A DNA stretch of 64,000 nt from Escherichia coli (GTDB lineage: Bacteria; Pseudomonadota; Gammaproteobacteria; Enterobacterales; Enterobacteriaceae), in assembly GCF_030013205.1 (NCBI RefSeq), contig NZ_CP122649.1; one strand, given 5' to 3'. The position numbers were made by a program. Positions within the stretch are counted from its first letter, which is position 1. Every line of letters starts with the position of its first letter. This document shows, piece after piece, positions 18,306 through 21,300 of this stretch.

Positions 18306-21300
18306 TAGTTGAGGGTTATCTGTCACAGATTTAAGGGTGGTTCGTCACATTTGATCTGGAAGGTTGAGGGTTATCTGTCACAGATTTAAGGGTGGTTCGT
18401 CACATTTGATCTGGAAGGTTGAGGGTGATTTGTCACAGAAAGGGCGGCTATTTGAGGGTGGTTCGTCACATTTGATCTGGAAGGTTGAGGGTGATTTGTC
18501 ACAGTTTTGCTGTTCCCTCCCTGGCATCCTGCGCTTACTCATGGTTTTTTGGCTGTAACCGGTAGTGGAGCCAGAATTGAGGGCAATTTGTCATCCTATC
18601 CTGAGGGTAGTTTGTCACACTAGATTTTCCCCCTCTTCCCGGGTAATGGTGCCAACTTACTGATTTAGTGTATGATGGTGTTTTTGAGGTGCTCCAGTGG
18701 CTTCTGTTTCTATCAGCTGTCCCTCCTGTTCAGCTACTGACGGGGTGGTGCGTAACGGCAAAAGCACTGCCGGACATCAGCGCTATCTCTGCTCTCACTG
18801 CCGTAAAACATGGCAACTGCAGTTCACTTACACCGCTTCTCAACCCGGTACGCACCAGAAAATCATTGATATGGCCATGAATGGCGTTGGATGCCGGGCA
18901 ACCGCCCGCATTATGGGCGTTGGCCTCAACACGATTTTCCGCCATTTAAAAAACTCAGGCCGCAGTCGGTAACCTCGCGCATACAGCCGGGCAGTGACGT
19001 CATCGTCTGCGCGGAAATGGACGAACAGTGGGGTTACGTCGGTGCTAAATCACGCCAGCTCTGGTTGTTTTACGCGTATGACAGGATACGGAGGACGGTT
19101 GTGGCGCACGTATTCGGTGAACGCACGTTGGCCACGCTGGAGCGTCTTCCGGGCCTGCTGTCGGCCTTTGAGGTCGTGGTATGGATGACGGATGACTGGC
19201 CGCTTTATGAATCACGCCTGAAGGGAAAGCTGCACGTTATCAGCAAGCGTTACACTCAGCGCATTGAGCGGCATAACCTGAATCTGAGACAGCATCTGGC
19301 AAGGCTGGGCAGGAAGTCACTGTCGTTCTCAAAATCGGTGGAGCTGCATGACAAAGTCATCGGGCATTATCTGACCATAAAACACTATCAGTAAGTTGGA
19401 GTCATTACCCAGTAATGCGACAAATGCAATGAAAGAAGTAGCGAAAGTCCTTTTTTCAGCCCGAAGTGACCCGGAGCTCATGAAATTTATAATGGATTAT
19501 ATTAATAACCACAAACTGCATTGAAGGTAATTGCGGTGTATAAAACAAAGCCATTTTCGGCCAAAAAATGAGTCAGCTGAAGAAACGCTCGTTAATTCCG
19601 AATCCGTCCAGATTAATATGGCACACTGCTGGTGGAGGTTTTGGCAATCGGAAAAGTAACTTTTCACCCGTGTCTAATCATCATCGTTTTATCAATCCGC
19701 TCAGTTACGGTATTAAAATCTCACGAAAAATAGTCTTCTTATCGAAGTGTCATGCTGTCTTCGCCCGATATAGTGAAGGTATGTATTCAGCGGGGGCACT
19801 GACATGCGAAAGAGCTATACCTATGGGATTCCTTTCGGACTCCATCGCGAAACCGGACGGTTTCTGGACATCACGGAAGTCAGCAGAGGAAGCGCATGCA
19901 ACTGCATCTGTCCTGGGTGTCGTACGGATTTGATAGCCAGACAGGGAGAGGTCAAACTTTGGCACTATAGCCACAGTACCGATCTCCTCGGTGATTGTGA
20001 TGGCCTGATGGAGGCGATTCGGGGAAAAATTATTGAAATTATTCAGGAAAAACAACTTCTAGGATTCCCGCATCTTCTGGCCGGTTACGATGGAGGCACG
20101 GTCCCACTTGATGAAGTCAGCGGCAGCGGAAGCATGTTCGGCGCAACGGCAGATCTGTTTGTGAAGGTGAACGATCTCTGCGTAGCTGTGTTTCTGGACA
20201 TTGACCGCAGTGTGGCCGGGAAACTGACGTTCGACCATCTCCATGCCTCGGAGATGGTAGCTGCATTGCGCATTGATCTGCCGGATATAGAATACGAAAT
20301 CAGTCAGGTTCAGCTTGGTAGACGAGATGGTACCTACAGTGAATGTATCGAGAAAATCATCATTGATGCGACGGAGTCACGCGAATGGTTGTATCACCCC
20401 ATGATGCAGGAACTGGGGACCGAGCCCCTGAAGGTATATGAGGGCCGCGAGCCAGCGGAAGCAGGACCACTTCTACAACGCCTTTCCGACTGCCCCCTGA
20501 AGCTGCCGGACAACTTACCCCAGAGCATGAATGTGCTGATAAGAATGCAGCAGGCCACCATTGTGTGTTTGTGTCGGCTCACCGTCAGAGCTTCAGATAT
20601 CGCCCAGACCGACGAATTCCCGCTGTTTATGCGTTACTTCCGGCTGCATTGCCTCGACACCAGTGAGCATGTGAATTACGAGAAATTGCTTAACTGGCAG
20701 GACATGATTACAAAATCAAAGGAAGGGCAGTTACTAACGGTGGAGGAAAGGGATTATCTCCAGGAAATCGTCCGTATTGGTCTCTATAACCACCGGCTTA
20801 AAAGTGTCTGCCTGACGGCCTGCGAAGACAGTAGGGTGGGAGAATCTGAAGGACCAAACAATTACTCATTGCTCTGAAGAGGGATGGGAAATTATGGGGG
20901 GACATGGAAGCGTGAAGAGAATAAACCTGTTCGCCTTAAACAGAAACAGGCTGTTCATTTCTTACATGTGAACAGAGTACCTATCATGATCAGACCGGTA
21001 ATATAAATTGGCACAGCCATCAAAACCAATCCCAGTGGTTCTTCTTTGGTAAAAGCATCCTGAATAAGTCCGTCTTCGCTTAAAGCTAATGGACGCATAC
21101 ATTAGCATTAAGGCGTAAGGTCTAATAACTGGATCAGGAGTTTCGGATTTTTGCGCGGTAGGTGTGTTTGACCCTTTCAATTGTCGCAAGAGTTGAATTC
21201 CAGTAGCGTTCAGCGTCAGAACGATAAAGAGCAGCGATAGCCTCTATGGTTTTGGGGGAACAGGTTGCACTGCGATGCACACGGCCTGCCTGGCCAAAGA

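Follow-up and report, generated by a model that had tools for sequence, protein, structure and literature searches.

What does the 357-residue protein encoded at 19804..20877 (+) do for the plasmid that carries it? The gene lies in a 64,000-nucleotide stretch of Escherichia coli contig NZ_CP122649.1, which was analyzed as a whole and is called the window here. A sequence-only reading of the window described the product as a CoiA-like zinc-finger protein of a plasmid backbone, with about 300 residues that resembled nothing recognizable. The protein has a three-domain architecture, is conserved, and belongs to the backbone of IncHI resistance plasmids. We infer that it binds DNA as part of an IncHI maintenance module and may be a structure-specific nuclease, and we put the probability of this reading at roughly 40%.

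The open reading frame (ORF) at 19804-20877 (+) in the ORF list of the window has 357 codons and an ATG start. The encoded protein is identical to RefSeq WP_001232452.1, the "hypothetical protein" of R27 and pHCM1. Exactly the same interval is a coding sequence (CDS) in the RefSeq records of three IncHI1 plasmids: pHCM1, R27, and the plasmid of an E. coli pig isolate, whose sequence matches the window at every base. The region has 100% identity with the IncHI1 plasmids pHCM1 (S. Typhi CT18) and R27 and is matched by 291 plasmid records, 273 of which are typed as conjugative, which bears out the assignment to a plasmid backbone. Comparison with the IncHI2 orthologue gave a pN of 0.16 and a pS of 0.85, with synonymous sites saturated, and therefore indicates purifying selection on the gene. 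It is a real and conserved backbone gene of IncHI resistance plasmids.

The N-terminus of the protein reads RGSACNCICPGCRTDLIARQGEVKLWHYSHS. CNCICPGCR occupies residues 32-40 (nt 19897-19923), and WHYSHS occupies residues 53-58 (nt 19960-19977). A profile search against CoiA found that Pfam CoiA_N (PF25164) matches residues 33-59 with an E-value of 6.8e-07 and 29.1 bits, above the curated gathering cut-off of 26.3. Because the match exceeds this cut-off, the profile evidence indicates that the pair of motifs is not a chance pattern. All 134 homologues in the family alignment, from which all conservation figures below were taken, also match PF25164. With hhalign, the family alignment was compared to streptococcal CoiA, and residues 13-70 were aligned with CoiA residues 4-59 at a probability of 95.4%. 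The aligned stretch also covers a Cys shortly after the finger (C65 here, C53 in CoiA). The comparison set consisted of database proteins verified as CoiA by PF06054 and by source names; all of those retrieved carry both PF06054 and PF25164, several are named CoiA by NCBI, and the resulting profile has a Neff of only about 2.

The putative zinc ligands are C36, C39, H54, and H57, and C32, C34, and C65 are conserved too. C36, C39, H57, C65, and W195 are invariant, and conservation is at least 90% at P10, F11, V26, G29, C32, C34, P37, L43, A45, G48, H54, F55, P89, D117, and H198. AlphaFold2, which models no metals, gave the zinc-finger region a pLDDT of 86-98. Pfam, hhalign, conservation, and AlphaFold2 are the evidence for an N-terminal beta-hairpin and CoiA_N-type zinc finger at residues 9-65 (19828..19998, +), and they support the CoiA-like finger described in the sequence-only reading.

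The study of CoiA describes it as a C2H2 zinc finger joined to a PD-(D/E)XK single-stranded DNA (ssDNA) endonuclease that resolves the transformation D-loop, with the catalytic residues D95 and E105. Its active site is a PD-ExQ variant resembling that of BglII. The CoiA study also places CoiA in Bacillota only, with YraN in its role elsewhere. PF06054, the CoiA nuclease domain, has no match in the protein of the window at E<=10 and none in any of the 134 homologues at E<=1. When the core alone was compared with streptococcal CoiA, the profile-profile comparison failed, as hhalign returned a probability of 0.4% and an E-value of 0.14. There was no match in NCBIfam and no PADLOC family at E<=10. 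PHROGs gave only matches of E 0.04-0.16, which were disregarded, and searches of PDB sequences with the protein and with the family profile gave chance matches only. No helix-turn-helix or other regulator domain was found with Pfam or NCBIfam. The remainder of the protein is thus indeed unrecognised by sequence profiles. The term "CoiA-like" is accurate for the zinc finger only; the nuclease domain is undetectable by sequence, the C-terminus is unrelated, and the setting is not that of competence. Since the tests of nuclease domain and biological context fail, the protein is not a member of the CoiA family, and the gene is not a competence gene. It is a plasmid-borne variant of the CoiA design that keeps the zinc finger, probably has a remodelled nuclease-like core, and ends in a new C-terminal domain.

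The core domain, residues 66-205 (19999..20418, +), is predicted to be restriction-endonuclease-like, of the PD-(D/E)XK type. AlphaFold2 with the family alignment gave a pLDDT of 91.3 for the full length, and a pLDDT of 93.8 and pTM of 0.90 for residues 1-212. In the model, the zinc-finger hairpins (11-57) are followed by a helix (67-83), a strand (85-88), and a hairpin insert. Then come a strand at 114-122, which includes D117, a strand at 125-132 ending in D132-I-D134-R, and a short helix. The last elements are a strand at 152-158 (LRIDL), helices, a strand at 193-197 (R-E-W-L-Y), and then H198-P199. This order, alpha-beta-beta-beta-alpha-beta, is the order of restriction-endonuclease-like folds. 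The structural relatives listed include TT1808 (1wdj), SfsA, and 3fov, a member of UPF0102, to which YraN also belongs; Kosinski et al. had linked these relatives to CoiA. Foldseek against viral models returned six matches at E<=1e-3 over 140-224 columns, one of them annotated "Competence protein", and endonuclease and restriction-enzyme entries come next. As a prediction from the model, the restriction-endonuclease-like fold of the core is probable but weakly supported. The all-helical C-terminal domain, residues 222-345 (20467..20838, +), is found only in the IncHI-type clade, to which the last 150 residues as a whole are restricted.

The D...E-x-E site of BamHI is a precedent for an active site composed of D117 and D132-x-D134. 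D117 is present in 130 of the 134 homologues (97%) and pairs with CoiA D95 in a greedy, non-significant alignment, in which the position of CoiA E105 is occupied by F130. D132-x-D134 lies on the same strand, two and four residues beyond F130. D132-x-D134-R135 and R156-I-D158 are specific to the IncHI1/IncHI2 clade, and only there are D132 and D134 invariant. The syntenic IncHI1B orthologue has N132, but it has E156, the commoner state across the wide family. Two homologues, P0012 and P0015, have a proline at position 117, and in 24 of the 134 none of the five candidate positions is acidic. What is truly universal is the motif K/R193-x-W195-x-Y/F-H198-P199. Catalysis is therefore possible in the IncHI1/IncHI2 clade, as far as its residues indicate, but is not obviously the conserved function.

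The gene directly follows hha in IncHI2 plasmids (74% identity), in IncHI1B Klebsiella plasmids (34%, full length), and in the metagenomic relatives L007/L008 and L010 (59-63%). The module in those plasmids reads tus, two hypothetical genes, a tyrosine recombinase gene on the opposite strand, hha, and the gene. Its place downstream of this series is kept in IncHI1 (the window, R27, and pHCM1) as well as in IncHI2, IncHI1B, and the metagenomic relatives. The gene thus belongs to a hha-adjacent orthologue group of the IncHI backbone. hha (15755-15967) and the CoiA_N gene form a conserved same-strand pair in IncHI1, IncHI2, and IncHI1B, with gaps of 86-360 bp (L007, L010, L011, and L012). A functional link to Hha/H-NS silencing is possible.

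In the window, R27, and pHCM1, an IS1-repE-IS1 block with a RepFIA-type repE (16218..19409, +) separates the gene from hha, its ancestral neighbour, and 394 bp of native DNA are left upstream of the gene. The block was delimited by the annotation of the identical plasmids, and the IS1 ends were read in the sequence. Its repE is flanked by iteron-like repeats. The 9 bp beside the outer IS1 ends differ (GGACGAAAT and CAGTAATGC), so the insertion lacks a simple target-site duplication. In the relative L009, the gap between hha and the gene holds another replication gene, of the Rep3 type, which suggests that this gap is a recurrent insertion site for auxiliary replicons.

A consensus scan of the DNA before the start codon found a promoter-like site at 19747..19774 (+), with a -35 element GTGTCA, a 16-nt spacer, and a -10 element TATAGT. 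Its 9/12 consensus matches are no more than shuffles give, and taken alone it is weak. Downstream of it is a Shine-Dalgarno-like run, GGGGG (19792-19796, +). A TATAnT -10 element and a G-rich Shine-Dalgarno run near the start codon recur at diverged orthologue loci. Overlapping ORFs at 19568-19933 (+) and 19750-20055 (-) were rejected as mechanical; they are unannotated in RefSeq and overlap the conserved CDS and its promoter.

Published expression data for R27 may bear on the gene. The CDS is located at 154290-155363 in R27, directly before an IS1 whose insB is R0177, and it is followed in order by the rep gene R0179, the IS1 genes R0180/R0181, and hha (R0182). Since this gene order fits, the CDS is taken to be R0176. 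A literature search on "R0176" returned reagent catalogue numbers only. The array signal of R0176 rose from 154 units at 25 °C to 807 at 37 °C, or 5.24-fold (Gibert et al., PMC7366339). In the main text of that paper, R0176 is the only gene with a lower signal in the derepressed htdA mutant at 25 °C (-2.45), and the change at 37 °C is -7.42 (PMC7366339). If the identification holds, the gene appears to be expressed and to be regulated in the opposite direction to the transfer genes. Such regulation would argue against a role in transfer or establishment and for a role in vegetative carriage.

In the reading that we prefer, the zinc finger and the core together would bind DNA, probably single-stranded or branched, by analogy with CoiA. 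Cleavage by D117 together with D132-x-D134 may persist in the IncHI1/IncHI2 clade. The substrates would be replication or recombination intermediates of the plasmid itself, within the module of tus, tyrosine recombinase, and hha, and the protein would act in vegetative carriage at 37 °C and not in transfer.

The main rival to this DNA-processing role, somewhat unlikely in our view, is that the protein is catalytically dead and that its nuclease-like core has become a DNA-binding scaffold. It would then be a regulator or a nucleoid-associated factor, possibly one that reads a dispersed palindrome, one copy of which precedes its own gene, or works with the Hha/H-NS silencing next to it. The poor conservation of the candidate catalytic residues, beside an invariant zinc finger and K/R-x-W-x-Y-H-P motif, fits such a protein, and so do the constant proximity to hha and the opposite regulation of the putative R0176. 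On the other hand, D117 is still 97% conserved, and no regulator domain was recognized.

The palindrome in question was noticed through a 13-nt motif, AAAGTAACTTTTC, reported just upstream of the gene in the sequence-only reading. The copy at 19653-19665 is present and is the core of a perfect 15-bp palindrome, GAAAAGTAACTTTTC, at 19651..19665, centred 146 bp upstream of the ATG. With up to two mismatches allowed, 20 copies of the 13-mer are present in the window, ~10-fold the 2.1 +/- 1.5 of the shuffles, and none of 100 shuffles reached 20. The dispersed form is GAAAAGT(A/T)ACTTTTC. Perfect copies of the palindrome are at 4223-4237, 19651-19665, and 52029-52043; copies with one mismatch are at 469-483 and 27344-27358, and those with two are at 12657-12671 and 53543-53557. 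Further copies were seen at 7813-7827 and 12520-12534, and weaker ones at 28083 and 59501. The copies with zero to two mismatches fall in backbone DNA, at 469-27358 and 52029-53557. No such copy is found at ~29-51 kb, where floR, msr(E), IS26, and other resistance genes and insertion sequences reside.

Most copies are intragenic, in the VWA gene, tus (two copies), the C5-methyltransferase gene, and the start of the thermonuclease gene, and they are therefore not classical operators. The few intergenic ones include that upstream of the CoiA_N gene and one ~45 bp upstream of an HNH gene. In IncHI2 (L012), L007/L008, and L010, the orthologous gene is likewise preceded by a copy, at a distance of 117-165 bp and in intergenic DNA that can otherwise hardly be aligned. 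The copy inside tus is conserved in IncHI2 and the metagenomic relatives too. The palindrome could be the site of a plasmid-wide regulator. HtdA was reported to affect most R27 genes. A literature search with the palindrome sequence found nothing.

Three other explanations of the palindrome were rejected. It is not a Tus Ter site, as it shares only GTAACT with the E. coli Ter core, is symmetric, and is too frequent. For the core site of a tyrosine recombinase, its 1-bp spacer is too short. It is not a hairpin or terminator, since its stem is rich in AT and a loop of 1 nt is impossible.

The retention of this dimer-type palindrome upstream of the gene in diverged plasmids favors a regulator that reads it. 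So does the enrichment of the motif in the element L005, which shares few genes with the window, among them this gene, a tyrosine recombinase gene, and one small ORF. However, any IncHI-wide regulator would yield the same co-occurrence, and the motif is absent from L002-L004, the loci of the 39%-identical homologue P0015. The palindrome is also mostly intragenic, and the copy before the gene, ~90 bp upstream of the -35 element, does not occupy the position of an operator.

The wider family raises another alternative. A word-indexed search found only 14 close clusters, of 49-91% identity. An exhaustive HMMER search extended the family to 2,429 representatives at E<=1e-3 (203 at E<=1e-10), and many align over residues 9-205; these ~2,400 relatives are counted as 50% clusters. 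Distant members often end in a CxxC...CxxC zinc ribbon, and 29 of the 134 homologues match Zn_ribbon_11. In a tblastn search, a homologue was present in 2,810 of 72,556 plasmid records, mainly from Klebsiella, Escherichia, Salmonella, and Enterobacter. The distant homologues are found in variable mobile-element contexts with no constant partner. In the Salmonella plasmid locus L002 (cluster at 3974-9038), and also in L003 and L004, P0015 is at the end of a compact same-strand cluster of a resolvase, a 552-aa protein of no recognized type, a STAND-like AAA_16/AAA_22 ATPase, and DUF6933. KfrA_N and RNase_T genes come after it. The cluster resembles a defence or maintenance cassette, yet P0015 has lost D117. 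A Vibrio homologue adjoins an ABC-three-component system.

Such a distribution would fit a plasmid-borne defence or exclusion nuclease, cutting the DNA of incoming phages or competing plasmids. This would be analogous to many stand-alone PD-(D/E)XK effectors on mobile elements, and the surrounding IncHI backbone is rich in nuclease genes (HNH, thermonuclease, and phospholipase D). We nevertheless consider it quite unlikely. PADLOC recognizes no family, tblastn against a phage collection found no homologue, and P0015, the homologue in a defence-like cluster, has lost D117. In IncHI plasmids, the gene has a fixed position beside tus, the integrase gene, and hha and not in a variable defence island, and it has no conserved partner. 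A genuine CoiA orthologue, resolving the D-loop of incoming DNA in natural transformation, is effectively refuted: it would explain the common zinc finger and the records that call homologues "competence protein CoiA family protein", but neither PF06054 nor the C-terminal region of CoiA is present at the sequence level, CoiA is described as restricted to Bacillota, with YraN taking over in other bacteria, and the conjugative plasmids of Enterobacteriaceae on which the gene lies have no competence genes near it.

A broader proposal, which we regard as speculative and unlikely, is that the protein and its ~2,400 relatives form an unrecognised mobile-element family, with a CoiA-type zinc finger and a remodelled nuclease-like core, that does for conjugative plasmids what CoiA does for transformation, through recognition or cutting of ssDNA or D-loops, or alternatively reads the palindrome in IncHI. 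The IncHI member would then be a temperature-controlled, HtdA-dependent factor of the non-transfer state. Literature searches on CoiA with IncHI, on "CoiA-like" with plasmid, and on the leading region found nothing relevant.

Several other features of the window were observed. The IncHI1 backbone around the gene is unusually rich in DNA enzymes: two HNH-signature proteins, a C5 cytosine methyltransferase, a thermonuclease-family protein, and a phospholipase-D-family protein are encoded among 25757-26563, 27396-27725, 51880-53307(-), 53530-54045, and 55030-55809. A toprim-domain protein is encoded at 1767-3020. Five same-strand ORFs of ~300-320 aa, all annotated as hypothetical, occupy 3897-8920 and include two pairs of distant paralogues, 6852-7787 with 7964-8920 (27.6% over 312 aa) and 4846-5781 with 5859-6779 (27% over 101 aa). 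The distance between an HNH gene and a 130-aa ORF is ~1 kb in R27 (L016) and ~3 kb in the window (22681-25757). The extra DNA of the window carries a 401-aa ORF (23452-24657), which is truncated by a mer transposon in pHCM1. IncHI1 plasmids therefore differ in the segment that follows the gene.

IncHI plasmids (R27, pHCM1, the IncHI2/R478 type, and Klebsiella IncHI1B hybrids) carry much of the multidrug resistance that matters as major vehicles of it, and many of their backbone genes have only a hypothetical annotation. The gene or a homologue is found in ~4% of all sequenced plasmids in PLSDB. The CoiA_N label is already in databases, as the UniRef cluster is named [quoted passage not shown]; in view of the plasmids that carry it, this widespread protein is of medical relevance, and its function is inferred. 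If it is a binder or nuclease specific for DNA structures, IncHI plasmids would have in it a new factor for maintenance or for the control of recombination, and the zinc-finger/nuclease design of CoiA would reach beyond Gram-positive competence. Even if it is ordinary, the label "hypothetical protein" gives way to a domain architecture and a testable list of residues.

Three groups of known proteins can be compared with this one. With CoiA of S. pneumoniae and other Bacillota (PF25164 and PF06054), it shares the N-terminal CPxC...HFxH finger, the Cys shortly after it, a similar overall length, and the presence of a C-terminal extension. According to the model, it probably also shares a nuclease-like alpha-beta-beta-beta-alpha-beta domain after the finger, with a conserved Asp on beta-2 (D117 here, D95 in CoiA). 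Unlike CoiA, its core is unrecognisable as PF06054, and CoiA E105-x-Q107 corresponds to F130-x-D132. It has the additional conserved C32 and C34, a beta-hairpin insert between beta-1 and beta-2, and an unrelated C-terminal domain, and it is plasmid-borne in Enterobacteriaceae, outside any competence regulon.

The uncharacterised "CoiA_N domain-containing" proteins of Proteobacterial mobile elements, which also match DUF7828/DUF7830, align over residues 9-205 and share C36, C39, H57, C65, D117, W195, and H198. Their identity is only 20-30%, they usually have a C-terminal zinc ribbon and no helical domain, and mostly they have E156 where the IncHI clade has D132/D134. The third group comprises PD-(D/E)XK nucleases with non-canonical sites, namely BglII and CoiA (D...E-x-Q), TT1808/COG4636, and UPF0102 (YraN).

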